From positions 7,540-71,539 of the forward strand of contig JAQBFN010000020.1 in NCBI GenBank assembly GCA_032123335.1: a DNA stretch of 64,000 nucleotides, in the 5' to 3' direction. The stretch is from Candidatus Micrarchaeota archaeon (lineage in GTDB: Archaea > Micrarchaeota > Micrarchaeia > Anstonellales > Bilamarchaeaceae). Each line of letters begins with the position of its first letter. Within the stretch, counting starts at the first letter, position 1. Below the pieces are notes generated by a model. The model saw nothing but the letters and a program-made list of their open reading frames with translations. It searched no databases and was not told the DNA's origin. The position numbers and the translations under genes are program-made. Positions 22,034 to 52,990 of this stretch are shown piece by piece.

Positions 22034-22540
22034 ATGAATAAGGATTTCTTTGCCGGTGTTTTTGCCGGCGTAATCCTCTTTTTTGTTCTCTCATTCATGT
22101 TTCTTCCCGCATATTCCGTTTCCGTAATCTCTTCTCCCGGAGCCGAAGACGAAATCCTCTCCCTTATTGATTCCGCCCAGCACTCAATCTACATAGACAT
22201 GTACATACTCACTTCCGAAAAAGTTGTGGATGCACTAATCTCCGCCCACTACCGCGGCGTAGAAGTAAAGGTAATCCTTGAAGAGCGCACAGGTGCAAAC
22301 ACCCTTGCTTTCTCCCGCCTTGAAGGTGCAGGCACCCAGGTCTGCTGGGCCTCTGCAGTCTACAAGCTCTCCCACCCCAAACTCATAATTGTGGACAACC
22401 AGAAAGCCCTGGTAGGCTCCCACAACCTCTCCAACTCCGCCCTTAATTCCAACCGGGAAATCTCCCTCCTTGTCCAGGGAAACGTAGTTTCTACCCTCCT
22501 TTCCCTTTTCAATTCCGATTGGGATGCCTGTTCCATGTAG
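22034..22540 (+). CDS. Secreted phospholipase-D-family (HKD) nuclease/phosphodiesterase
   Basis: N-terminal TM/signal. Single HKD motif HPKLIIVDNQKALVGSHNLSNSA (HxKx4Dx6GSxN), as in Nuc-type PLD nucleases. Confidence 0.75.
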   Translation: MNKDFFAGVFAGVILFFVLSFMFLPAYSVSVISSPGAEDEILSLIDSAQHSIYIDMYILTSEKVVDALISAHYRGVEVKVILEERTGANTLAFSRLEGAGTQVCWASAVYKLSHPKLIIVDNQKALVGSHNLSNSALNSNREISLLVQGNVVSTLLSLFNSDWDACSM

Positions 22541-22591
22541 CCCACTTCTCTCGAAACTCCTCCTAAGCCTTATAAATATATTCTGTCAAAT

Positions 22592-25500
22592 ATGAATATG
22601 GCAGCAGTTGTAGAGCGGAGTAATTGGTGTAAATTACTGCTAGCCGTATTTATGCTCGTTTCCCTCTCTTTTTCCGCCGGATTCACCTCCGAAGACCTTT
22701 CCAATAAAATAACCTTCATTGACATCTCTGCCGTGGATGGAGTGGTAACCGCCAAGCTCACTGTGCTGACGATGGATGCCAGCATTGAGCACAACCAGTC
22801 CGCCCTCATTGAGGCGTTCAGGGAAGCAGAGAAAGGAAACCAGGCAACCGCAGAGCAAATCCTCGAGGAAGCAGGCCTGAACACTTTCTCAGGGTATTTA
22901 GGCAAAATCGAATCTGAAAGGGCCCCCATAGAAGGTGCAGACCTCAATTTCTACTACACAGTAAAAACCTACGATGATGACAACTATCCTGTCTTCACCA
23001 GGGAGCCAGTGCCCTTTTGTGCAGAGCCAGACCCGGTGCTAACTGATGAGGAGGGGATCGCAGAATGCGACCTCACCCCTTATTATGAAGGAATATACGA
23101 GGGTAAATGCACAGAAATTTCCGTGGTTTTCGGGGATTCAGTATTTGGCACCCAGCTAAATGACGAAACTTATCCCTATGTAGAAGAGATAGTTTACGTA
23201 TGTGACCAGGAAACAACCGCACTCGCAGTAATGCGCGAAGAGATAAGGACCATATTCTCAGACCAGGCCCAGAACCCCCTCTGCTTTGCATCAATGCTTT
23301 TGGGAGGAATGCTGCTCGCTTCAATGTTCTTTGCAGGAAGGAGCCCACTTTCCCTCCTTGATATCACAACACCCCTTCTCCCCAAGGCAAAAGCCATCTC
23401 CTACAGCGGCCTTAGGATGGGAGTCGGTTTCGGGCGCATCATGAAAGAGATGGGTGGCATGGGCGGGCCCGGAGGCATGATTGCATCCTCTTCCAAAGCA
23501 ACCACCGAGCGCATGCTCCGCTACCTCCGCTCCAAGGGCAAATACAGCAAGCGCATGGTTGACCTCATAATGAATTCCGGGGCCAATGAAGTCCTCAAGA
23601 TGCTTGCTCTCCGCTCACTTATTGCAGGAAAAAGCGAGCATTATGTAAAGGGCATTCTCGGGTTCAAGGGAAAAGCCCTGACTGAAGCAGATTTCCAGTC
23701 GGCCTATGCAAAGGTTCTTGCAGACCTTGATAAATCTTCAGATGCAAACGACCTGAATGAATACACGGTTAAGGGGTATGGTGCTAATGCACAGAAGCAG
23801 GGCCTCCACGATTCAGTGCTCCTCCTTGCCCAGATGAGCATGCTTAATGCAATGCAGCAGCAAGCCTTTATTGATTCTACCGGGGAAATACCTGCCTGGT
23901 TCAAGACCCCGCTTGGAAAAACCCTGGGAAGGCTCCCCTTCATCGGAACCCACATAATGGGAGGCACAGCATCCCTCTTTTTTGGTGGCAGGCACCTAGG
24001 CCGCTATTACAATAGTTTTGCAAGGGGAGCAGTGCGCGGAATAGGCGATGTGTTAACCCCCAAAGATAAGAAATTCAGCAAGCGCATCCAGATGGCTGTT
24101 GACGATGCGCGTGTAAAAGGCAAGAAGCCAGGATTTTTTGCAAACTGGGTTGCCCTCAAGGACAATGAGCGCCAGCTCGTAAAAATCTTTGACAATTTTG
24201 AATACGGTTCCGCACTCTACAAGCGCATGATGAAGGAAGCCCGCAAGGATGTCCTCAACTGGCTCGTGGGTACGGTAATTGCGAAATACGGAGGAAAGAT
24301 GGACCTCACCCGTGAAGAGGTTATAGAAATTGGGGAAAAGACTCCGGATGAATTGATGTTCCGCACCTTCAACAAGATTGAATTCTCAAAGATTGAAGGA
24401 GAGCTCCGTAGGCTCCTCTCAGATCCAGGCATGAGGGACCTCCAGAAAGCCCGCGCCCTGATGCGCCTTATGGAAGCATACGGAATAGCTTTCGACAAAC
24501 AGGGCGTTACTGATGCAATCCACATGCTCTCCAAAATAGACCGGGAAGACCCCAAATCCCCTGCAGCAGTAGGCATAATCGATCCGACCAACAGGTACGC
24601 AATGGATTGCCACAAGCTCATGCGCCTCCAGAGCTACCTACAACAGCAGTTCAACGTTGACAGGCTAACAGACATCAAGTCAGAGTACAAGGCTTTCCAG
24701 GACGGAGGAAAATTCTTCTTCACAGTAGGAAGGGAAACCCTCTCCCACGGCGCAAGCGATTTCACGTTTGGCACCTTTTTCCGCTCCAAGTACCGCGAGG
24801 CGCTTGAGAACTCCAAAGCAGGGGAAACCCGCCCCATCTCCATAAGGGACATCGCGAACTACTCTTTCCTCCGCATCGCAAACGAGCGCTGGGGACTAAT
24901 TGACCCAAATATGCCCGGCCTGGACAAGAAGCTCGTAGCAGTAATGAAGAACGCAGAAACCTGGCTCCGCTCCCTAGCAGATCCAGAGTTCCTCAGGCGC
25001 AACCCCTCGTACTCCAATCTTCTCAATTCCCTTTATGGCCCAAGTGCCCGTGCTGGTGTGAAAGACGACACCATGGACATAATGGAGCACGGTGCCGAAT
25101 ATGGCACAGCCAAGGGCGCGTGGCGCATGGACATGAAGGCCCACTGGAAAATTTACGGGGGCCCGATGGGCGGAGTAAAATCTTCTGTAGAAAACCAGGC
25201 ATTTGGGGAAGTTAACCGTGCCCACAATGTCCCCATGGCTATCCAGTCGATGATTGACAAGGGACTCAACTACAAGGATGCTTCAGGCAAGTACATGAAC
25301 ACTGTTGTTGAAAGCTACCTCTTCAAGCGCCTGAAGGGAATGATAGAGCAGGACAATCCAAATACCTATTTCACTTCCCAGGGTGAATTCGACCGCTTCA
25401 GGCAGCTCTGGGCCTCTTACAAATCACACATTGCCAGAGACAAAGGCATAGATGAAAGGAGTGTTACCGACAAGCAGGTTGCAGAATTCATAAAGAAGCC

Positions 25501-28219
25501 CCTTGGGATTGAGGAGCTTTCAAAGTCCAGCTGGATAAGGCTGAAGGAAGGCTCAGTTGCTCCGTTTATCCAGGAACACACTTTCAAGCTTGCCCAGGCC
25601 GACCGTGTAATAAACGCCAAATATTACATACGGCGTGGCGGGTACTGGGAGGAATTCGCGCCTGAGAAATTCCAAAAGCAGAAACCATTTATGGATGTTG
25701 TCCTGGGCAAGGACAGCGAAATCAGGAAAATGCTTGGGGACAAGGATTACATTCTTTCTGGAGGTGAGATACGTGGTGTATCCAACAAGCTCCTGAAGGA
25801 ATATGAAACTATTATGAATAACCTGGCGCGAGTACCCCAGGCAGATATTGACAAGCTTTTCGCGAAACTCAAAACAGGCGCTGCGAAAGACCCCAAGAAT
25901 TCTGAAGCCTATGCTGCAATGGCAGGATATGTGCTCAGTGGAAGGGCAGGAAGGGACCCAACTAAACTTGACCTTGCCGATAATTTCGGGACCCGTCTAG
26001 GTGAAAAAGTCCGCATGGAACTCATGCTCAAGGACTACCAGAATGCCAAAACCACGGAGCAGAAAAGGGCTGCCGCCAGGGACCTTATGAACTGGGCAAA
26101 AGCAGGAGGGCCTGGTGAGGAGCGCCACGTAAAAGTCGCCCTCCTCCTGTACACCCACGCAGACAGAACCGGGGACTGGAAAGATTTCAACAATTTTGAT
26201 GCAGTGAAGCTCATGCCCGGTGCAACTGCAGATCTAAAGCCTGGCAATGTCCAGGAGTACGAAAAGCTCACCGGGCTCAAAGGCTGGATCAAGAATGCAG
26301 TTAACCTCACCCAACACATCACAGACCCGATAAGCAAGAAGTTCAACCTTGGGCTTGAGCAGTTCATGCTTTCCACTTTCGGCAAGCAAATGAAGAGCGA
26401 ATATGAAGGAAGCCTTGTTTCAGAATACTTCAGGCAAACAGGAGGAAAATTCGCTGCTAAGCTTGCGGCAGGGGAATTCGGCAACCCGGATATGCGAGCC
26501 AACGCGGACCCAAGAATAAAGGAATTCAACCGCCTCATGGATTCATTTACCCGCTACCATGCAGTCTGGGACGAGACAATCACCCGTGACCCCAGGGGCA
26601 ACTCTTCAGCCATTGGGGGCGCATTCATTTACTCAGGTTTCTTCCACCACGGTCCTGCCATGGGATTCGGCCCCGGCATGTACAGGAGATGGTCGTCTGC
26701 AGGCCACCAGCAGCCCTGGACTACCTGGGGAGGATTCAAGGCAAATGTGCGTGAGCGCGCATGGGGCCTCCAGTTTGTCCCCCAGATGTTCAACTGGGCA
26801 GTGGGAACTCCTTTTGGTGTTGCCTACAGGACATACATAACCTCCAGATGGGGCTTCATGTCCAAGTATGACAGGAAATACAGCAGTGACGCCCCCCTAG
26901 TCACAGAAACCCCTGAAAAATACCGTGCAGGCGCAATTCAGAAATATGATGATCAACTGGCAGCCTATCAGGCTAAAATGATTGAGCAGATTGCTAAACT
27001 CCAGCAAAACAAGGGCTATTCAAACGAAGATGCATTTACCCAGGCCAACCAGGAGCTCAGGGGTGAAAGGCCAACTCCTCCTTCATTTGAGCTGGAGCGT
27101 GACACCCTCAGGCCCTATTCCGAAACCCACCCCAGGACTTCAGAAGGCCGCGCTGCAATGTTCAACTGGTTTTATGCTTCATTTGACCCCACATCAACGA
27201 ACCTCAAGCGTTTTGCATCAATCGCGGCCGCTGCACCCGGTTCACTTATGACTCCCCTGCACCTAATCAGAGGAGTGCAGAGCAATATCCTGAAGGGGGG
27301 CACTCCCGGGATAAACCGCTCTGACAGCAACCCATACTATGTAACTCCCGGAGGAATGAGGGGCCAGATGATAAAGGCTACTGGCCCCATGGTCAAGAGG
27401 CAGTATGGAGGAACTGAAATTGTTACCGGTGTAGTACGGTCCCATGAAGATATGTGGGCTTACCAGGCAGGGGTTAATGCTGTTTGGGGCAATGCAAACC
27501 CCGGCGCATCCTACATTGATTTCAGCCAGAGCCTACACCTGGACCCCCGCGCAGCCAACTATCTCCGCTATGAATCACGTTTCCGCCCATATATGCAGTA
27601 TGATGAATATGTGGACAAGCAATCCAAGCTCGGCCTTGTGAAGAGGGACATCGACCCATTCAAGCTCATGATGGCAAGGAATGCAGAAATCAGGCATTAT
27701 AAGTTCCCTGAGAACACTCTCTTCAGGTTCCTAAACCCAGCAGCATTCGCTATCTACAAAGCACAAGCATTTGTTACCAAGCGCGGGCAAACCCTTGTCA
27801 ATGCAAGGAACATGTATAGGGATGCAACAACCAATGTTTCAACCACCACCGGCGGGGCTATGCTTACAGGAGTAGGCAACTTTGCATCCAAGATAGGTGG
27901 CAAGGTAGGGACTATGATGCACCAGAATCTAGAGCTTGGATTCAGGAAGAGCATCCGCTACTGCCAGTCCTGCGGAGGGCCGAGGGTTGAAGGCGGCGTA
28001 TGCAATGCCTGCGCAAGAAAAACAAGATGTTCTTACGAAGGATGCGACCATATCGGGGACCCATCCCACAACCACTCCTGCGTACATGGAATACAGCGCA
28101 ACCTCCTGAATGAAGAATTTTCTCAAAAAGGCGGCTTCAAAGTTGCAGGAGAGAGGGCCTCCGGTTGGTATGGCCTAAGAAAAAGCCATTGGGGAACACT
28201 ATGGGGTAGAGAACCATGA
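22592..28219 (+). CDS. Giant (1875 aa) single-pass membrane/surface protein of unknown function
   Basis: Uninterrupted 5.6-kb ORF. N-terminal signal peptide, a ~220-aa N-terminal domain, then one TM (…CFASMLLGGMLLASMFFAG…). No P-loop or known catalytic motif. Trp/Gly-rich segment (aa ~1330-1420). C-terminal Cys/His cluster CQSCGG…CNAC…CSYEGCDH…HNHSCVH. Confidence 0.7.
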   Translation: MNMAAVVERSNWCKLLLAVFMLVSLSFSAGFTSEDLSNKITFIDISAVDGVVTAKLTVLTMDASIEHNQSALIEAFREAEKGNQATAEQILEEAGLNTFSGYLGKIESERAPIEGADLNFYYTVKTYDDDNYPVFTREPVPFCAEPDPVLTDEEGIAECDLTPYYEGIYEGKCTEISVVFGDSVFGTQLNDETYPYVEEIVYVCDQETTALAVMREEIRTIFSDQAQNPLCFASMLLGGMLLASMFFAGRSPLSLLDITTPLLPKAKAISYSGLRMGVGFGRIMKEMGGMGGPGGMIASSSKATTERMLRYLRSKGKYSKRMVDLIMNSGANEVLKMLALRSLIAGKSEHYVKGILGFKGKALTEADFQSAYAKVLADLDKSSDANDLNEYTVKGYGANAQKQGLHDSVLLLAQMSMLNAMQQQAFIDSTGEIPAWFKTPLGKTLGRLPFIGTHIMGGTASLFFGGRHLGRYYNSFARGAVRGIGDVLTPKDKKFSKRIQMAVDDARVKGKKPGFFANWVALKDNERQLVKIFDNFEYGSALYKRMMKEARKDVLNWLVGTVIAKYGGKMDLTREEVIEIGEKTPDELMFRTFNKIEFSKIEGELRRLLSDPGMRDLQKARALMRLMEAYGIAFDKQGVTDAIHMLSKIDREDPKSPAAVGIIDPTNRYAMDCHKLMRLQSYLQQQFNVDRLTDIKSEYKAFQDGGKFFFTVGRETLSHGASDFTFGTFFRSKYREALENSKAGETRPISIRDIANYSFLRIANERWGLIDPNMPGLDKKLVAVMKNAETWLRSLADPEFLRRNPSYSNLLNSLYGPSARAGVKDDTMDIMEHGAEYGTAKGAWRMDMKAHWKIYGGPMGGVKSSVENQAFGEVNRAHNVPMAIQSMIDKGLNYKDASGKYMNTVVESYLFKRLKGMIEQDNPNTYFTSQGEFDRFRQLWASYKSHIARDKGIDERSVTDKQVAEFIKKPLGIEELSKSSWIRLKEGSVAPFIQEHTFKLAQADRVINAKYYIRRGGYWEEFAPEKFQKQKPFMDVVLGKDSEIRKMLGDKDYILSGGEIRGVSNKLLKEYETIMNNLARVPQADIDKLFAKLKTGAAKDPKNSEAYAAMAGYVLSGRAGRDPTKLDLADNFGTRLGEKVRMELMLKDYQNAKTTEQKRAAARDLMNWAKAGGPGEERHVKVALLLYTHADRTGDWKDFNNFDAVKLMPGATADLKPGNVQEYEKLTGLKGWIKNAVNLTQHITDPISKKFNLGLEQFMLSTFGKQMKSEYEGSLVSEYFRQTGGKFAAKLAAGEFGNPDMRANADPRIKEFNRLMDSFTRYHAVWDETITRDPRGNSSAIGGAFIYSGFFHHGPAMGFGPGMYRRWSSAGHQQPWTTWGGFKANVRERAWGLQFVPQMFNWAVGTPFGVAYRTYITSRWGFMSKYDRKYSSDAPLVTETPEKYRAGAIQKYDDQLAAYQAKMIEQIAKLQQNKGYSNEDAFTQANQELRGERPTPPSFELERDTLRPYSETHPRTSEGRAAMFNWFYASFDPTSTNLKRFASIAAAAPGSLMTPLHLIRGVQSNILKGGTPGINRSDSNPYYVTPGGMRGQMIKATGPMVKRQYGGTEIVTGVVRSHEDMWAYQAGVNAVWGNANPGASYIDFSQSLHLDPRAANYLRYESRFRPYMQYDEYVDKQSKLGLVKRDIDPFKLMMARNAEIRHYKFPENTLFRFLNPAAFAIYKAQAFVTKRGQTLVNARNMYRDATTNVSTTTGGAMLTGVGNFASKIGGKVGTMMHQNLELGFRKSIRYCQSCGGPRVEGGVCNACARKTRCSYEGCDHIGDPSHNHSCVHGIQRNLLNEEFSQKGGFKVAGERASGWYGLRKSHWGTLWGREP

Positions 28220-30588
28220 ACAAACTGCACATATTCATACTGATTGCAATTCTGCTATTCGGATGCACAGAAATGGAAAACTATTATGAGGGGGAAGGGA
28301 AAGAAATAAACCGCACAGAACCCCTGGATATGGACAACCTGATTTCCTGTGACACCACAGACCATGATTGCATCTGCATGGTCTGCGAAAACAGTGATTC
28401 ATTTGAATTCACCAATCCCTTCAACCGTTTTTACAGCATAGACCTCAGGGAAGGAGAATGCAGATTCGAAACAGATTGCACAGAGGAAAAATTCCTGGAA
28501 ATCTCCACCCCGGATTTTGAGAATTTCCTTTTTGGCCAGGAGCAGGTGCGCTTCTTCATGCTTGGCCAGGGCTCGAATTTTGCAGAGTTCGCAGACGCAA
28601 ACCGCTACTGCAATAACTCCCTTAGGCTCGCAGTCCGCTGGCTCTATTCCACTGATGGATTTGAGTATCCTGCCCCCCAGCCCGAGCGCGCAGAATGCTT
28701 CCTTGAAAAGGACACGCTTCCCGTTTACCTCCTTTACAGCGAAGGAGAAGCAATGAGCGTCCCCCGTGCTGCTTACATCGCATCGCAATTCCAGGAATCC
28801 GGCCCCGTAATCCTTACTTCTGAATTCGATTTCGACCCCTCCAACTTCCAACAGCTTAACGATGCAATAGACCAGGCTATCGCAATGAAATCCGCTTGCC
28901 CTGATTGCCTGATTGCAATCGCACCCAAATTCAAATACAACTACAGCGAAGTTGATGGCGAATATTACGGCTATAACCACACCTACGATGCAATCGATTA
29001 CATTTTCGAGACCCAGGAGGCCCGTGACAGCATAGCCCTTGTTGCCATAGGCCTCAATTCCCATTACACCCAAAACTGTGCAGGCGCTTCCCTCCTTTGG
29101 GATGGGATGGCTTACTCCAAATACATAATGCAGCAGCATGGAAAGCCCACGCTCTGGGCATATGTTCTTCTTGATGATAGGCAGCCCAGTGCAGCCCCCT
29201 ATGGTTCCCTTGAATACTGCGAATGGAATTCAGATGAGATCACACGAACATACGGTGACCTCTACAAATACATCCCCTCTTTCGTAAACAATGGGGTAAT
29301 CGGAATCGCCCCATATTCCCTTTACGGTCTGGGTACGGGTCCGCTTGAATGCGCAGATTGCGGAATGATGGCAGTGGATGGAACAACTTATCCACAGCAC
29401 GCAGAATGGTTTTCCCTCTGCCAGGTTTACTATACCGGGAGGGGAGTAATCCCAGTGGTTTTCTCCCCCAGCCCATGCGCTGACTGCTCATTTGCAAACA
29501 ACTTCAACATGTTCCAGCTTTCCGACTCTTACTACGGCTCCGGCCCAACCATTGAGCAATACCAGGACAAGGCAGTTGCTCCCTTCTCCACATTCTATAG
29601 GTGCAACGGACAGCTCATGAGTGAGGTACCCGAAGAGATAACCCTCCCTTCTTACTCTGCGGGCGATAATGAATGCAACTGGTACCCCGAGCTGGATATT
29701 TTCTCAGACCTCCGAGACTCCGACCCTGTGCTTGCCCGTGCAATAACCTGGGGTGAAACCGGCTTAAATGATGATACTGAAGGCCCAGATGGCGACATGT
29801 GTGAAGCTTCTGATGTTGATTTTGGCCTGGCCAGCTTTCCTGAATGCGTAACCGACCCAGAGGGAAGATGTGGAACACAGTGCGCCCCGACAAACTGGCG
29901 CAAGCATTCCCTGGGCCTCATGCAAATCCATGTATATCCCCAGCAAATCTGGGCCGATTATCCCCCTGGCTCTGGAACAGAGCAGGAGGCTCTCTGGTGC
30001 GCTGGAAATGCCGTAGATGGATTCAACCCATTCAACAAAGCCCACAACGCATGCGTAGGGACCGCAATCATCCTGGAATATCTCCAGGTGGGAAAATCCA
30101 AGGTTTCAAGCAATGAGCAGCAGCTCGGGCTCGCCTACCTAAAAACCACATATGGGGAAGACAGCGATGAATACCTCAACATGAAGAACGCATTCATTGT
30201 TTTCATTTCTTCTTATTACTACAACGGGTTCTCAGCCTTCCAGAACGGAATAGATTCCTGGATATATGAATACTCCAAGCAGAGCGGGATAACCGATGAA
30301 TACTGCGAAGTTGCAGCCGGCTCAGACCCCTGCTGCAACAGCGATGGCACAGCCAAGAGCAACAACTGCTGTGGAGTAGAGAACTTCATAAACTACTACC
30401 AGTCCTGCAAGCTCCCCACACTTTCCAACCAGCAGGCAGGGGCATACGGGCTTAGGCTCCTCGGCCACTACAAAGCCCTTCTAAAATGCGAAAAATACGA
30501 TGAGGCCCAGCACGAGCAGAACCTCATAGACTACCTTGAATCCTATGGTGAATCATTAGAAGAACCAGAGGAAGCGGAAGAAAGCTAG
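28216..30588 (+). CDS. Cys-rich lipoprotein with lytic-transglycosylase (SLT/lysozyme-like) motifs
   Basis: Lipobox LFGC. About 50 Cys. ITWGETGLN…SLGLMQIHVY…KAHNACVG…AIILEYLQ corresponds to SLT motifs I-III (E-S/T, GLMQ, AYNxG). 4-bp overlap with the giant gene. Confidence 0.55.
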   Translation: MNKLHIFILIAILLFGCTEMENYYEGEGKEINRTEPLDMDNLISCDTTDHDCICMVCENSDSFEFTNPFNRFYSIDLREGECRFETDCTEEKFLEISTPDFENFLFGQEQVRFFMLGQGSNFAEFADANRYCNNSLRLAVRWLYSTDGFEYPAPQPERAECFLEKDTLPVYLLYSEGEAMSVPRAAYIASQFQESGPVILTSEFDFDPSNFQQLNDAIDQAIAMKSACPDCLIAIAPKFKYNYSEVDGEYYGYNHTYDAIDYIFETQEARDSIALVAIGLNSHYTQNCAGASLLWDGMAYSKYIMQQHGKPTLWAYVLLDDRQPSAAPYGSLEYCEWNSDEITRTYGDLYKYIPSFVNNGVIGIAPYSLYGLGTGPLECADCGMMAVDGTTYPQHAEWFSLCQVYYTGRGVIPVVFSPSPCADCSFANNFNMFQLSDSYYGSGPTIEQYQDKAVAPFSTFYRCNGQLMSEVPEEITLPSYSAGDNECNWYPELDIFSDLRDSDPVLARAITWGETGLNDDTEGPDGDMCEASDVDFGLASFPECVTDPEGRCGTQCAPTNWRKHSLGLMQIHVYPQQIWADYPPGSGTEQEALWCAGNAVDGFNPFNKAHNACVGTAIILEYLQVGKSKVSSNEQQLGLAYLKTTYGEDSDEYLNMKNAFIVFISSYYYNGFSAFQNGIDSWIYEYSKQSGITDEYCEVAAGSDPCCNSDGTAKSNNCCGVENFINYYQSCKLPTLSNQQAGAYGLRLLGHYKALLKCEKYDEAQHEQNLIDYLESYGESLEEPEEAEES

Positions 30589-30992
30589 TTCTTCCTTCCA
30601 AACCCTAATTTCCTTTTCCAGTAGAAGAATGTTCTCCTGGGCATCATGAGCTCCTTCATTTTCTCATCATTGCTCGTTTTCTTGGAAATAACCGCCCTAA
30701 TCTTCTTCTCATCATATTTCTGCGGCCTTCCCCTCTTGCACTTCCTTACAATGACCTCTACGCTCTTCCCCAGGCTCCCCATCACTTTCCTTGGGATAGT
30801 CCTGGAAATGCCTTCGCTTATGTATAATTTCTTTATTCTTGTCTCATTAAGCAGGATCACAAACATCATCACATTAGGCTTGGTTTTCAAAAAGAATGAT
30901 TCTGCATCCTTGTTATCAGTTATCTGCCTATAGATGTTATCCCTGGTTCCTTTGAGCTCGATTGCGCTAAGTTCTTTTGAACAATCCGGCAT
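30585..30992 (-). CDS. Small HTH-domain protein (possible transposase-N-terminus-like or regulator)
   Basis: …EGISRTIPRKVMGS…KRGRPQKY… resembles homeodomain-like HTH modules. No catalytic domain. Confidence 0.3.
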   Translation of the reverse strand: MPDCSKELSAIELKGTRDNIYRQITDNKDAESFFLKTKPNVMMFVILLNETRIKKLYISEGISRTIPRKVMGSLGKSVEVIVRKCKRGRPQKYDEKKIRAVISKKTSNDEKMKELMMPRRTFFYWKRKLGFGRKN

Positions 30993-37810: not shown

Positions 37811-39064
37811 CTACTGCTTCTTCGGGACTACATCCAGCACGACACCAGCCGCAACTGTCTGCCCCATGTCCCTGATTGCGAACCTTCCGAGCGGAGGGAA
37901 TTCTGCATACTTCTCAATCACGATGGGCTTGAGTGGCTTGAACTTAACCACTGCAACATCACCGGTCTTGATGAAGTCTACTTTTCCTTCCTGGCCCTTC
38001 TTTTCCACAATCTCAATAATCTTAGCTGCAAACTGTGCAGTGTGGATGTGAAGCACGGGTGTGTATCCCACAGAGATTGCAGTCGGGTGGTTCAGCACAA
38101 CTACCTGTGCAGTGAACTCGTCTGCAACTGTTGGCGGGTTTGCAGAGGAACCAAGAACGTCTCCCCTCCTGATGTCCTTCTTGTCTACACCCTTTACGTT
38201 GAATCCAACGTTGTCTCCGCACTTTGCCTCAGCCATTTCCTGGTGGTGCATCTCAATTTTCTTCACTTCACCAGTTGCTCCGGAGGGCATGAACACAACC
38301 TTCTCGTTAACCTTCATGGTTCCAGTTTCAATACGCCCAACAGGCACGGTTCCGTGCCCGGTGATTGTAAATACATCCTGGATCGGGAGCCTGAGCGGCT
38401 TGTCCATAAGCTTTGCAGGCACAGTAAAGCTGTCCAGTACAGTGAGAAGTGCCGGTCCCTTGTAATAAGGGGTGTTCTCAGAGTTCTTTGAAATGTTGTC
38501 TCCCTTGTACCCGGATGTCGGGATAAAGACGAGCTTGCTTACATCATAGCCCATTCCTTTGAGGAGCTTCTCGAGTTCTGCCTTGACCTCATTGTACCTT
38601 GCCTCATCATAGTTGATTGCGTCCATCTTGTTGATGAGGACCATAAACTGGCCGATTCCGAGCACCTTTGCAAGGAACGCGTGCTCCTTGGTCTGGGACT
38701 GCACACCATCTTTTGCAGAAACCACGAGGGCTGCTGCATCTGCCTGGCTTGCACCTGTAATCATGTTCTTGACGAAGTCTCTGTGGCCGGGTGCATCGAT
38801 AATCGTGTACTCATATTTGTCCGTAGTGAACTTCTTGTGAGACACATCGATGGTAACTCCCCTTTCACGCTCTTCCTTGAGAGTGTCCATCTCATAGGCG
38901 AATTCGAAGGTCGCTTTACCGAGCCTCTCCGCCTCCTCCCTGTACTTCCTGAGGGTCTGTTCAGAGAGCGCCCCAGTCTCGTAAAGGAGCCTACCCACAC
39001 AAGTGGATTTACCTGCATCTACGTGGCCAATAAACACTATGTTCATATGTTCTTTTGCTGCCAT
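37811..39064 (-). CDS. tuf: Translation elongation factor 1-alpha
   Basis: [21 protein letters not shown]. Confidence 0.95.
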
Positions 39065-39229
39065 TTATATTCACCTATATATAATTTATTCTATAACATT
39101 TGCTTTCTACGTGCAGATGCACGAAAAGTAAGCATAGTGGTTATTAATAGACAGTCTTTTAAATGTTCCCCAGAGCCTCTCTCCTGCATTCCCCACCACC
39201 CTTATAATTCTATTTTCCTTATTCTCCAT

Positions 39230-40345
39230 ATGGTGGATGATATTTACCTTAATAAGCCAGAGGAATTGTTCGAAGCCCTGGAGCGCGAGCTTGAAGACCC
39301 GGAAAAGGTCGTCGCAGTCCAGATGGCTCCCGCAGTCCGCGTTGCAATCGGAGAGGAGTTTGGCTACGCCCCCGGAGAGGACCTCACCAAAAAAACGGTG
39401 GGTCTCCTGAAGCAATTGGGTTTTGACCATGTTGTAGATACCCCCCTCGGCGCAGACGTCAACATTTATGAGGAAGCCTACGAAATACTCCACGCCCTGG
39501 AGCGCAACGACGAAGATTACTTCCCGGTATTTAACTCCTGCTGCATCGGCTGGAGGCTCTACTGCTCCCGCACCCACGAAGATATCTGCAAGCACATCTC
39601 CCCCATTGCCTCCCCCCACATGATTACGGGCAGCATCATAAACCACTACCTCCAGAAGAAGCTGGGCAAGCCCCGCAAGGAAATCATTTCCGTAAGCGTA
39701 ATGCCCTGCACTCTCAAGAAATATGAAACTCTGGAGCGCTTCCCGGATGGAGATCCTTATGTGGACTATGTCCTCACCACCCGCGAGCTCGCTGATTTCG
39801 CAAGAAAGAAGGGCCTGGACCTGAAAACCGCCCCAGAATCTGAATTTTCCGAGCTCCTTCCCGACTCTTCCAAGGATGGAGTGGTGTTTGGAGTGACCGG
39901 AGGCCTGGTTGAAGCCCTCCTCACGACCCTTGCACACATCCTGGAAGTTGAAAAGGAAAACGAGCATTTCTTCCGCAATGATGATGAAATCAAGGAGCGC
40001 GAAGTAAAGCTCGGAGAATACACCCTCCGCGTAATCTCTGTCCACGGTTTCGCAAACCTGGAAAAAGTCCTAAAGGAAATCGAAGGCGGAAAGAAATTCC
40101 ACTTTGTAGAGGTAATGAACTGCCCATATGGGTGCGTTGGCGGCCCTGGCCAGCCCCTCCCCGTAACTGAGGAAAAGCTCAAGGCCCGCGCCGCAGGCCT
40201 TCGCAAGGCCGCGGACAACAAGGACACAGTTGCCACAGTTCCCCAGGAAAACCCCACGGTCCAGAAGCTCTACCGCGAGCTTTTAGACCGCCCGGGCTCT
40301 GAAACCGCACGCAAACTCTTATATTTCCATAAGGTCAAACTATAG
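39230..40345 (+). CDS. [FeFe]-hydrogenase-like protein, H-cluster domain only (HydA/Nar1 family)
   Basis: All three H-cluster signatures are present. L1 FNSCCIGW (cf. TSCCPxW). L2 VMPCTLKKYE (MPCxxKxxE). L3 EVMNCPYGCVGGPGQP (ExMxCxxGCxxGxGQP). No N-terminal ferredoxin-like domain. Start taken at the first in-frame ATG after the EF-1alpha divergent region. Confidence 0.7.
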   Translation: MVDDIYLNKPEELFEALERELEDPEKVVAVQMAPAVRVAIGEEFGYAPGEDLTKKTVGLLKQLGFDHVVDTPLGADVNIYEEAYEILHALERNDEDYFPVFNSCCIGWRLYCSRTHEDICKHISPIASPHMITGSIINHYLQKKLGKPRKEIISVSVMPCTLKKYETLERFPDGDPYVDYVLTTRELADFARKKGLDLKTAPESEFSELLPDSSKDGVVFGVTGGLVEALLTTLAHILEVEKENEHFFRNDDEIKEREVKLGEYTLRVISVHGFANLEKVLKEIEGGKKFHFVEVMNCPYGCVGGPGQPLPVTEEKLKARAAGLRKAADNKDTVATVPQENPTVQKLYRELLDRPGSETARKLLYFHKVKL

Positions 40346-50807: not shown

Positions 50808-51803
50808 ATGAGTTTGATTTCCAGATTCAAGAAAACTGCCTGGAAGAAGTGCAGGATGGTCCTTCCCGAGGGGGAAGACCCCCGTGTCCTTGAAGCCGCC
50901 ATAAAGGCGAAGAAGCTCAAGATTGCCGATCCATTCTTTGTTGGAAACAAAAAGGAAATAGAAAAAACAGCAAAAAGGCTCAAAGTTTCCCTCAAAGGCT
51001 TCGAAATAATCGACACCTCCTCAGGAATCCCCGAAAAATATATTGTTGCCTACCGCAAAGTGCGCAAAGCGCCCCCCGCTCTCGCAAATCGTATCCTCTC
51101 CAACCCACTCTTCCTCGCTTCCCTCATGGTAAAGATGGGTGAAGCAGATGCAATGGTTGCAGGCGCAGTTTCCTCTTCCGCAGATGTAATCACCGCTGCC
51201 ACTGGAATAATCGGACTGCGCAAGGGGGTCTCCGTTCCCTCAAGCTTCTTCATAATGGAAATCCCAAACCCCAAAGTAGGTGAAAACGGCCTCCTCCTTT
51301 TTGCAGATTCTTCTGTAAACATTGAACTAACTCCGGAGCAGATGGCGGATGTTGCAATCACCACTGCCCAAACCGCCAAAGAGCTCATGAATTGGACCCC
51401 CCGCGCTGCAATGCTTTCTTTCTCCACGAAAGGAAGCTCCATTCACCCGCGTGCAGACAAGGTAATCGAAGCCACAAAAATCGCAAACAAAAAAGCCCCC
51501 AAATTATACATCGACGGTGAAATGCAGGGCGATTCCGCCCTTGTTCCCTCCACCGCAAAAAAGAAAATAAAGGGTAAGCTCGGGCCAGTTGCAGGCCGCG
51601 CCAATATCCTCATATTCCCGGACCTTGACTCAGGAAACATCACCTACAAGCTTACTCAGTGTCTCGGTGGCGCAAACGCCTACGGCCCCATTCTCCAGGG
51701 CTTCCAAAAACCTGTTTCCGACCTTTCCAGAGGCGCCAAAACTGAAGACATTCTAGGCTCAATAGCTATCCTGAGTACCTGGGCAAAAAGGGTGAAAAAA
51801 TGA
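50808..51803 (+). CDS. pta: Phosphate acetyltransferase
   Basis: Pta/PtB fold. 331 aa. 4-bp overlap with ackA. Confidence 0.8.
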   Translation: MSLISRFKKTAWKKCRMVLPEGEDPRVLEAAIKAKKLKIADPFFVGNKKEIEKTAKRLKVSLKGFEIIDTSSGIPEKYIVAYRKVRKAPPALANRILSNPLFLASLMVKMGEADAMVAGAVSSSADVITAATGIIGLRKGVSVPSSFFIMEIPNPKVGENGLLLFADSSVNIELTPEQMADVAITTAQTAKELMNWTPRAAMLSFSTKGSSIHPRADKVIEATKIANKKAPKLYIDGEMQGDSALVPSTAKKKIKGKLGPVAGRANILIFPDLDSGNITYKLTQCLGGANAYGPILQGFQKPVSDLSRGAKTEDILGSIAILSTWAKRVKK

Positions 51804-52990
51804 AGAAAATACTCGTATTGAATTGCGGAAGCTCATCCATAAAGTACCGCCTTTTCGACAGCAAATTCAACACCCTCCTTTATGGAATAATCGAGCGCAT
51901 TGGCCCCAATGCCCAGCTCGTGCATCACAAGGGAAAGAAACCACTCACGGAAAAAGCAGATGCGAAAAACCACTCCCAGGGAGTCCAGCTTATGGTGAAG
52001 CTCCTCCACGATCCGGAGTGGGGCGCAATAAAGCGCGTAACTGAAATCTCGGTTGTGGGCCACCGCGTAGTCCACGGAGGGCAGTTCGCAAAGACCTCCC
52101 TCGCTTCCGGAGTCGCGCTGAAATACCTGAAGGATTTTGAGATGCTCGCCCCCCTCCACAATCCCAACAACATAACCGGGATAAATGAGATGAAGAAGGC
52201 GATGCCCACTGTTCCACAGGTGATGGTTTTCGATACTGAATTCCACCAGAGTATGCCCCGCAAAGCCTACATGTACGGTTTCCCCTACAGCTATTTTGAC
52301 AAGTATGCTGTGCGCAAATACGGTTTCCACGGAACCTCCCACAAATATGTTGCGCAGGAAGCCGCAAAATTCCTAAAAAAGAAATCCCCCAATTTGATTA
52401 CTTGCCACTTGGGCGCAGGTTCTTCCCTCGCCGCAGTAAAAGCAGGGAAATCCATCGATACCTCTATGGGAATGACCCCGCTTGAAGGCGTAATGATGGG
52501 AACCCGTACAGGGGACACAGACCCTGCAACTCTCCAGTATCTGGTAAATAAGTACAAATTCAAATATGAGGATTTATTCGATACAATGAACCACAAGAGC
52601 GGACTCTTAGGAGTTTCTGGGGTAAGCAAGGATGTCCGGATAATTGAGGGCCGCGCCAAAAAGGGCAACGAGCGCTGCAAGCTTGCCCTGGAAATGTATG
52701 CCTACCGCGTTGCAAAGTACATAGGAGCATACGCGGTTGCGCTCGGGAAACTCGATGCGATTGTATTCACCGCAGGAATCGGCCAGAACTCCTCTTCCAT
52801 GCGAAAGGAAATCTGCTCTTACCTCCAGATATTGGGTGCAAGGCTCGACCCCAAAAAGAACCGAAAACCAATCACTAAAGCCACGGACATCTCCGCCCGC
52901 GGCTCCAAAGTAAAAATCCTGGTAATCCCCACAAATGAGGAATTGATGATTGCAAGGGAAGCTGCAAAGGCAGTAGGTGCATCAAAATGA
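51800..52990 (+). CDS. ackA: Acetate kinase
   Basis: N-terminal ILVLNCGSSSIKY. VVHGG. FDTEFHQSMP. HLGAGSS. Confidence 0.9.
   Translation: MKKILVLNCGSSSIKYRLFDSKFNTLLYGIIERIGPNAQLVHHKGKKPLTEKADAKNHSQGVQLMVKLLHDPEWGAIKRVTEISVVGHRVVHGGQFAKTSLASGVALKYLKDFEMLAPLHNPNNITGINEMKKAMPTVPQVMVFDTEFHQSMPRKAYMYGFPYSYFDKYAVRKYGFHGTSHKYVAQEAAKFLKKKSPNLITCHLGAGSSLAAVKAGKSIDTSMGMTPLEGVMMGTRTGDTDPATLQYLVNKYKFKYEDLFDTMNHKSGLLGVSGVSKDVRIIEGRAKKGNERCKLALEMYAYRVAKYIGAYAVALGKLDAIVFTAGIGQNSSSMRKEICSYLQILGARLDPKKNRKPITKATDISARGSKVKILVIPTNEELMIAREAAKAVGASK

Follow-up and report, generated by a model that had tools for sequence, protein, structure and literature searches.

The subject of this study is a pair of adjacent genes in a 64,000-nucleotide stretch of DNA (hereafter the window) from a Candidatus Micrarchaeota archaeon (GenBank assembly GCA_032123335.1, contig JAQBFN010000020.1, positions 7,540 to 71,539 of the forward strand). 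The open reading frame (ORF) 28216..30588 (+) encodes a 790-aa protein that begins MNKLHIFILIAILLFGC, and it directly follows the ORF 22592..28219 (+) of a giant 1875-aa membrane protein. An initial annotation, made from the letters alone, had claimed that the shorter protein is an archaeal lipoprotein with lytic-transglycosylase-like (SLT) motifs. The claim of an SLT-type domain is borne out by the conservation of the catalytic Glu, a homolog above the Pfam threshold, profile–profile alignment and the ranking of structural matches. On this evidence, the C-terminal domain is well supported as a strongly diverged SLT/GH23 lysozyme-like member with an apparently intact catalytic Glu. Residues ~110–420 are confidently predicted to form a (β/α)8 barrel resembling clan GH-A. 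We believe that the protein is fairly likely an exported two-module surface glycanase, coupled genetically and perhaps physically to the giant membrane protein.

The three strings that the initial annotation had read as family-1 SLT motifs are all present in the right order: ITWGETGLN (E514-T515), SLGLMQI (565–571) and KAHNACVGTAIILEYLQ (608–624). The third string had been misassigned. It belongs to the helix known as 'DPxxNIxxGxxYL' in SLT enzymes, and the counterpart of 'AYNAG' is SYYYNG at residues 666–671, which had not been listed. The domain also extends over residues of about 485–775, beyond the ~500–640 given earlier. Conservation was counted over an alignment of 175 relatives, and the denominators are the members aligned at each column. 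The earlier claim had been made to depend on a catalytic Glu in a multiple alignment; Glu514 was found in 157 of 163 relatives (six substitutions) and in 123 of the 124 full-length members. The next residue is Ser or Thr in 154/163 and is Thr in the window protein. G567 was kept in 165/166, Q570 in 151/165, N604 in 161/170, P605 and C613 each in 171/171, Y669 in 132/163 and G671 in 149/163. The GLMQ and Y..G motifs line the active site of family-1 lytic transglycosylases. The divergent members follow the pattern W(R/Q)ESGF(N/D)xC...GLMQ...FNPxN...C.GT...Y..G, which is far nearer to the canonical SLT than the window protein is. Judged from the alignment, such conservation is far beyond chance, and the catalytic activity of the putative enzyme is predicted from it.

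Homology to the SLT family was found through relatives of the window protein. Seventeen of 74 family members gave Pfam SLT matches (5/26 close and 12/48 distant relatives). These matches always covered the region from the catalytic helix to GLMQ and were generally below threshold, with the close relatives reaching 14–20.6 bits (gathering score 21.3). The full-length homolog P0163, which matches residues 52–757 of the window protein (BLASTP E 9e-29), scored 29.9 bits over profile positions 4–104 of 117. When the profile of 162 family sequences was compared by hhalign with an E. coli SLT profile, built from the four MG1655 sequences Slt70, MltE, MltC and MltD, the probability was 94.4% (E 9.4e-8, 158 aligned columns). 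All four motifs were aligned in the same register, and a Cys-rich insertion shows as a gap of ~38 columns. Because this insertion splits motifs I and II, searches with single-sequence hidden Markov models (HMMs) fail. Against Slt70 alone, hhalign gave weaker matches (E 0.035 and 0.003). The whole-protein family profile had no match among PDB sequences, and the profile of the C-terminal domain had one, to EtgA, aligned at the catalytic ES and not significant (E~1). EtgA is a lytic transglycosylase of the type III secretion system. In each of Slt70, MltE, MltC, MltD and EtgA, the residue aligned with Glu514 is the catalytic Glu.

The structure models are compatible with this assignment. The full-length AlphaFold2 (AF2) model had a mean predicted local distance difference test score (pLDDT) of 82.3 and a predicted template-modelling score (pTM) of 0.81, and pLDDT was ~90 over residues 490–770. 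In this model Glu514 stands at the C-terminal end of helix 504–515 and is followed by short β-strands, as in lysozyme-type folds. When the C-terminal domain was searched by Foldseek against 350,542 PDB chains, approximately 40 of the top 50 matches were MltC, MltF, MltE, Slt70/Slt or goose-type lysozymes. In the viral library BFVD, the named best matches were LT_GEWL, SLT, endolysin or muramidase proteins.

The initial annotation overlooked the GH-A-like barrel, which makes up half of the protein. In the AF2 model the barrel shows alternating strands and helices with pLDDT ~90 over residues 160–370. The top 50 PDB matches in Foldseek were nearly all GH2, GH5, GH26, GH53, GH113 or GH30 barrels, with a probability of 1.00. 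The E-values against GH-A families ranged from 7e-6, for a GH2 β-glucuronidase, to 7e-4, and the other matches included GH5 and GH26 mannanases, GH113 and GH53 galactanases (target-normalised TM-score up to 0.57). Glu203 ends the fourth barrel strand, as placed by DSSP strand order and not by residue-level superposition; it is kept in 120 of the 124 full-length members and is preceded by Ser/Thr. Scans of the window protein and family members gave no sequence-family match for the barrel.

The lipobox LFGC, already noted in the initial annotation, is present and conserved. LLFGC at residues 13–17 fits the pattern of a hydrophobic segment followed by [LVI][ASTVIF][GAS]-Cys. G16 was found in 114 and C17 in 117 of the 124 full-length members, and both are invariant in the family alignment A1. 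Besides the signal segment, hydropathy showed no further hydrophobic stretch, and the composition is strongly acidic (119 D+E versus 43 K+R). A direct count gave 33 cysteines (4.2%) in place of the earlier figure of about 50; approximately 25 are kept among the full-length members. Because of the conserved lipobox, the acidic sequence, the lack of another hydrophobic segment and the conserved cysteines, the product is probably an exported, lipid-anchored, disulfide-rich surface enzyme, that is, a secreted ectoprotein tethered to the membrane.

The giant protein begins with a signal/anchor segment (aa 13–31), followed by an ectodomain of ~200 aa with conserved cysteines and a transmembrane (TM) helix. 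Beyond the helix lie ~1600 basic, Cys-poor residues and a C-terminal zinc ribbon, and this bulk of the protein is presumably cytoplasmic. C1791, C1794 and C1807 of the ribbon are invariant and C1804 is nearly so; its PDB matches were weak and to generic zinc ribbons only. Pfam, NCBIfam and PDB profile searches gave no relative of the giant protein with a known function, and a motif scan found neither Walker A nor HExxH. The longest block conserved among 10 orthologs is GLLLASM. Other sharply conserved blocks, including aa 1331–1336 and 1635–1643, are TRDPRGN, NANPGxSYxDF and RTHED. At three loci the giant gene appears as two consecutive ORFs (L002:1380-6328, 977+671 aa; L020:2850-7974, 1022+727 aa; L023:2010-7976, 1026+950 aa), which could be a genuine split, a frameshift or an assembly error.

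The junction of the two genes is an ATGA, in which the ATG at 28216 lies on the TGA stop (28217–28219) of the giant ORF; the overlap claimed earlier was confirmed, and there is no intergenic space. The TATA-like element TTATAAATATA ahead of the giant gene probably serves both genes as their archaeal promoter. Because of this element and the lack of intergenic space, both genes are likely carried on one transcript, possibly a leaderless one. Met3 (22598) is nearly invariant in the orthologs and has TTATAAATATA 18–28 nt ahead of it, which suggests that the giant gene starts at Met3 on a leaderless mRNA.

The family comprises 189 representatives at 50% clustering, with lengths of ~750–1000 aa, annotated only as "hypothetical". 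All named homologs and 25/25 species-representative loci belong to Candidatus Micrarchaeota (Micrarchaeia, Anstonellales, Bilamarchaeaceae). This taxonomy and the genes of the window confirm the archaeal origin assumed earlier and place it in Micrarchaeota. In 24 of 29 loci, the SLT-like gene is directly preceded, in the same orientation, by a gene for a recognisable ortholog of the giant protein, and the pairing holds down to ~25% identity. Of the remaining five loci, two lack sequence on that side, two carry large ORFs there that cannot be recognised, and one (L005) is different. The operon linkage read from the window alone is therefore conserved phylum-wide. The gene for topoisomerase VI (Topo VI) subunit A lies downstream in 21/29 loci. 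The family is specific to Micrarchaeota and, throughout the phylum, keeps one position in the core genome, next to the Topo VI genes. The 64-kb window was scanned for cell-wall synthesis (murein, pseudomurein), pilus and secretion genes, and none was seen; a local cluster for cell-wall synthesis or secretion was thus ruled out. A mobile-element or viral origin of the SLT-like gene was ruled out by the housekeeping synteny and ordinary GC content.

At locus L005 (region L005:703-12916), where the EF-1α is 70% identical to that of the window, the arrangement is different. P0163 carries the SLT domain and a C-terminal Peptidase_M23 domain (65 bits). It directly follows a 1193-aa VWA protein, a T2SSE ATPase and two T2SSF proteins; this VWA gene and type IV pilus-like cluster stand where other loci carry the giant protein. 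In the PHROGs library, the M23 part of P0163 matched endolysins and tape-measure proteins.

We believe that the exported two-module glycanase would work as follows. The C-terminal SLT module, with Glu514-Thr515, would cut β-1,4-linked N-acetylhexosamine (HexNAc) glycan strands outside the cell, and the GH-A-like barrel, with Glu203, would be a second glycan-cleaving module. The enzyme may be fixed at one particular place on the cell surface by the small ectodomain of the giant protein. It may act on peptidoglycan, belonging either to host bacteria or to bacteria nearby, or on a similar glycan of a cell envelope, and the cutting would serve cell–cell contact, envelope penetration or scavenging. 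Peptidoglycan is plausible because P0163 carries a domain of M23 peptidoglycan endopeptidases. This fusion is the only direct pointer to peptidoglycan, and the P0163 lineage is also the pilus-linked one. Murein and chitin-like, pseudomurein-like or host-envelope glycans are all compatible with the sequence data.

Several results weigh against this proposal. The 790-aa protein had zero matches in Pfam, NCBIfam and PDB phmmer searches, and its one PHROGs match covered only the signal-peptide region and was discarded as spurious. A Pfam SLT (PF01464) search had been suggested as a check: the homolog P0163 passed the threshold, but the window protein was unmatched even at E≤1. The C-terminal domain modelled alone had a pLDDT of 72 and fell below 50 around GLMQ. 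The initial annotation had also staked its claim on a lysozyme-like fold in a structure prediction; the model left this claim unrefuted, with GH23-type proteins as the top Foldseek matches, but no single match was significant (best E 0.54 in PDB and 0.054 in BFVD, TM-scores 0.3–0.47). In the barrel, no conserved Glu follows strand 312–318 (β7) among the 124 full-length members. Because β7 offers only the partly conserved Asp320 (83 Asp and 10 Glu of 124), the two-Glu signature of clan GH-A is missing, and this glycosidase-like barrel may use a different mechanism or only bind glycans. The M23 fusion and the pilus linkage occur in one lineage only (1/74 members scanned). Cultured Micrarchaeota are known to have wall-less Thermoplasmatales as their hosts (PMC5864196). 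Finally, the SLT-like gene belongs to the vertically inherited core of the genome and has housekeeping genes as neighbours, which suits a housekeeping envelope role at least equally well.

This last point leads to the strongest alternative, an autolysin-like housekeeping enzyme that remodels the cell's own envelope (S-layer glycans, glycocalyx or an uncharacterised wall polymer) for growth, division or insertion of the giant protein. The gene is phylum-wide and vertical, with strict synteny among Topo VI, EF, aminoacyl-tRNA synthetase and ribosomal genes. Such a pattern favours an autolysin, because it is typical of core functions and not of patchy, horizontally acquired weapons. In bacteria, 'space-making' lytic transglycosylases accompany envelope-spanning machines, and by analogy the pairing with a membrane protein gene would fit. 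The L005 member adjoins a pilus assembly cluster, as specialised bacterial lytic transglycosylases such as EtgA, VirB1 and FlgJ-type enzymes adjoin theirs. However, murein or pseudomurein synthesis genes were not seen in the window, and the M23 fusion in P0163 points to genuine peptidoglycan. The cultured Micrarchaeon is also reported to have a proteinaceous S-layer and not a glycan wall (bioRxiv 10.1101/2021.04.28.441871). On balance we consider the autolysin unlikely, although it deserves serious attention.

A second alternative is an inactive adhesin, in which both domains would be retained as scaffolds for carbohydrate recognition and would bind the archaeon to a partner cell without cleavage. 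The divergence from canonical SLT is so extreme that Pfam fails, the barrel has no invariant β7 nucleophile, and a role in attachment has been proposed for SLT proteins of DPANN archaea (PMC8204110). Against this, Glu514 (157/163) and S/T515 (154/163) indicate strong purifying selection, the GLMQ and Y..G motifs that line the active site are conserved too, and the barrel Glu203 is kept (120/124). Because both candidate catalytic glutamates are conserved, a purely adhesive role is improbable. Chance resemblance, that is, coincidental motifs in a Cys-rich orphan whose domain is unrelated to SLT, would fit the lack of a direct database match for the window protein and the individual Foldseek E-values of the domain, all >0.05, but it is largely refuted and very improbable given the profile–profile probability of 94.4%, the full-length homolog above the Pfam threshold, the four motifs in canonical order and register, and the two independent structure libraries that each rank GH23 enzymes first.

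The surface glycanase thus remains our preferred reading. A bolder reading, which is doubtful, is that the giant protein and the barrel–SLT lipoprotein constitute an envelope apparatus that is specific to Micrarchaeota, spans the phylum and has no counterpart elsewhere. In one form, a surface glycanase tethered to a cytoplasmic scaffold of ~1600 residues would open the envelope of a partner cell, as a contact or penetration device. In the other, the pair would be evidence that Micrarchaeota make a so far unrecognised wall polymer containing HexNAc and remodel it with a lytic-transglycosylase-type autolysin.

The putative SLT module was compared with known systems. Family-1 lytic transglycosylases (PF01464, GH23) likewise end a helix with one catalytic Glu and a following Ser/Thr, and then have GLMQ, a (D/N)P..N...G helix and a Y-N-x-G-type motif in the same order. 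Proteins with their lysozyme-like fold rank first among the structural matches of the C-terminal domain, and MltC, MltD and MltE are anchored as lipoproteins, which recalls the lipobox of the 790-aa protein. Unlike them, the 790-aa protein is archaeal, lies below every curated HMM threshold, is fused to a GH-A-like barrel, and adds a Cys-rich insertion of ~45 residues and a Cys-rich helical C-terminal extension. In the window protein Thr also replaces Ser after the catalytic Glu. The barrel shares the (β/α)8 fold of clan GH-A (GH2, GH5, GH26, GH53, GH113), and Glu203 at the end of β4 would occupy the acid/base position of the clan. It differs in having Ser-Glu in place of Asn-Glu at β4, a 75% acidic Asp320 position at β7, and many cysteines predicted to form disulfides. 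P0163, with SLT and Peptidase_M23 beside a pilus-like cluster, resembles the SLT + M23/CHAP hydrolases of bacterial conjugation and secretion and the phage tail lysins. The window protein, in contrast, lacks M23 and nearby pilus or secretion genes and has the giant orphan partner instead.

SLT proteins have been described in DPANN archaea before. Large ones of up to 3000 aa occur in Woesearchaeota and Pacearchaeota (fam00969), are mostly absent elsewhere and were proposed to act in attachment (PMC8204110). GH23 was reported in metagenome-assembled genomes (MAGs) of Woesearchaeota (PMC9723730), and SLT/GH23 in three MAGs of DPANN archaea from oxygen-deficient zones (PMC10936187). For Micrarchaeota themselves, a 'lytic murein transglycosylase' was noted in three genomes (PMC5864196), and the Micrarchaeota-related MAG LFW-156_1 has an extracellular GH23 (PMC8561730). 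Because such proteins were already published (PMC8204110, PMC9723730), including those of three Micrarchaeota genomes (PMC5864196), the surprise at an SLT domain in archaea implied by the initial annotation was overstated. The published proteins (PMC8204110, PMC9723730, PMC5864196) are likewise extracellular SLT/GH23 proteins of presumed symbionts with small genomes and were read as acting on bacterial walls. They (fam00969; AR20) are recognised by standard annotation and are patchy, whereas the present family is annotated as hypothetical only and has a fixed core position, a TIM-barrel fusion and a giant membrane partner. It differs from fam00969 in size, taxonomy and detectability, a distinction based on the description in the paper alone, and the lytic transglycosylases of the three Micrarchaeota genomes were compared with it by description only (PMC5864196). 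What is new is an unannotated phylum-wide family that combines a GH-A-like barrel, an insertion-bearing SLT domain and a giant orphan membrane partner.

Little is known about the means by which DPANN archaea bind and exploit other cells, and for most proteins specific to their lineages no function has been predicted. Here a concrete and testable biochemical function is proposed for a Micrarchaeota-wide family annotated as hypothetical. Because standard annotation misses members, GH23/SLT enzymes are under-counted in archaea, and their range extends beyond a few Woesearchaeota and Pacearchaeota. The giant orphan membrane protein, through its genetic linkage to the putative enzyme, becomes a candidate component of the cell–cell interface. 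Should the enzyme cut peptidoglycan, interactions with bacteria, and not with wall-less Thermoplasmatales alone, would be expected for many Micrarchaeota. Any other substrate would add to those known for the GH23 fold.

Table 1. Coordinates of the two genes and their predicted features in the window.
Feature	Position	Strand	Basis
790-aa lipoprotein-type, two-domain glycanase-like protein	28216..30588	+	ORF list; AF2 model, pLDDT 82.3, pTM 0.81
Predicted signal peptide with lipobox L-F-G-C (Cys17)	28216..28266	+	hydrophobic segment aa 4–18
(β/α)8 barrel, clan GH-A-like, aa ~110–420, with near-invariant Glu203 (codon 28822–28824)	28543..29475	+	AF2, Foldseek
Diverged SLT/GH23 lysozyme-like domain with Cys-rich helical tail, aa ~487–775	29674..30540	+	hhalign, Pfam match of P0163, Foldseek
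SLT motif I, DPVLARAITWGETGL, with putative catalytic Glu514 (codon 29755–29757)	29722..29766	+	ends helix 504–515
Cys-rich insertion of ~45 residues between motifs I and II, with small β-strands	29767..29901	+	alignments, AF2 model
SLT motif II, S-L-G-L-M-Q	29908..29925	+	aligned to GLMQ of E. coli enzymes
FNPFNKAHNACVGTAIILE, counterpart of the SLT 'DPxxNIxxGxxYL' helix	30022..30078	+	aligned to DPETNINIGTSYL of Slt70
SSYYYNG, counterpart of family-1 'AYNAG'	30208..30228	+	aligned to LSYNAGP (P0163) and AAYNAG (Slt70)
Giant orphan protein, 1875 aa, operon partner	22592..28219	+	ORF list, hydropathy, Cys distribution
Sole conserved TM helix of the giant protein, aa 230–248, followed by a conserved GRSPLSLLDITTPLLPKAK segment	23279..23335	+	hydropathy, ortholog alignment
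C-terminal Cys/His cluster, CxxC...CxxC zinc ribbon, aa 1791–1830	27962..28081	+	ortholog alignment
TATA-like element TTATAAATATA	22570..22580	+	sequence; 12–22 nt before ATG 22592, 18–28 nt before Met3 ATG 22598

The archaeal genes of the window include those for Topo VI A/B, DUF530, DUF2070, NMD3, EF-2, EF-1α and aminoacyl-tRNA synthetases. A basic 135-aa ORF (30585–30992, minus strand) is convergent with the SLT-like gene, overlaps it by 4 bp at the stop and has no Pfam match; a 128-aa gene fills the same slot, between the SLT-like gene and DUF530, in loci L001 and L002. Directly upstream of the giant gene, ORF 22034–22540 (+) encodes a small PLD-like (PLDc_2) protein. L001 and L002 have it at the same position, and the L005 contig carries a PLDc_2 gene too. 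Farther downstream, ORF 38681–40345 (+) of this archaeal genome carries [FeFe]-hydrogenase large-subunit C-terminal and small-subunit domains (Fe_hyd_lg_C 2e-70). Because its listed GTG start overlaps the opposite-strand EF-1α gene, the true start probably lies further downstream. At 50808–52990 (+), phosphotransacetylase and acetate kinase stand side by side (Pta-AckA), an acetate pathway that is typically bacterial.

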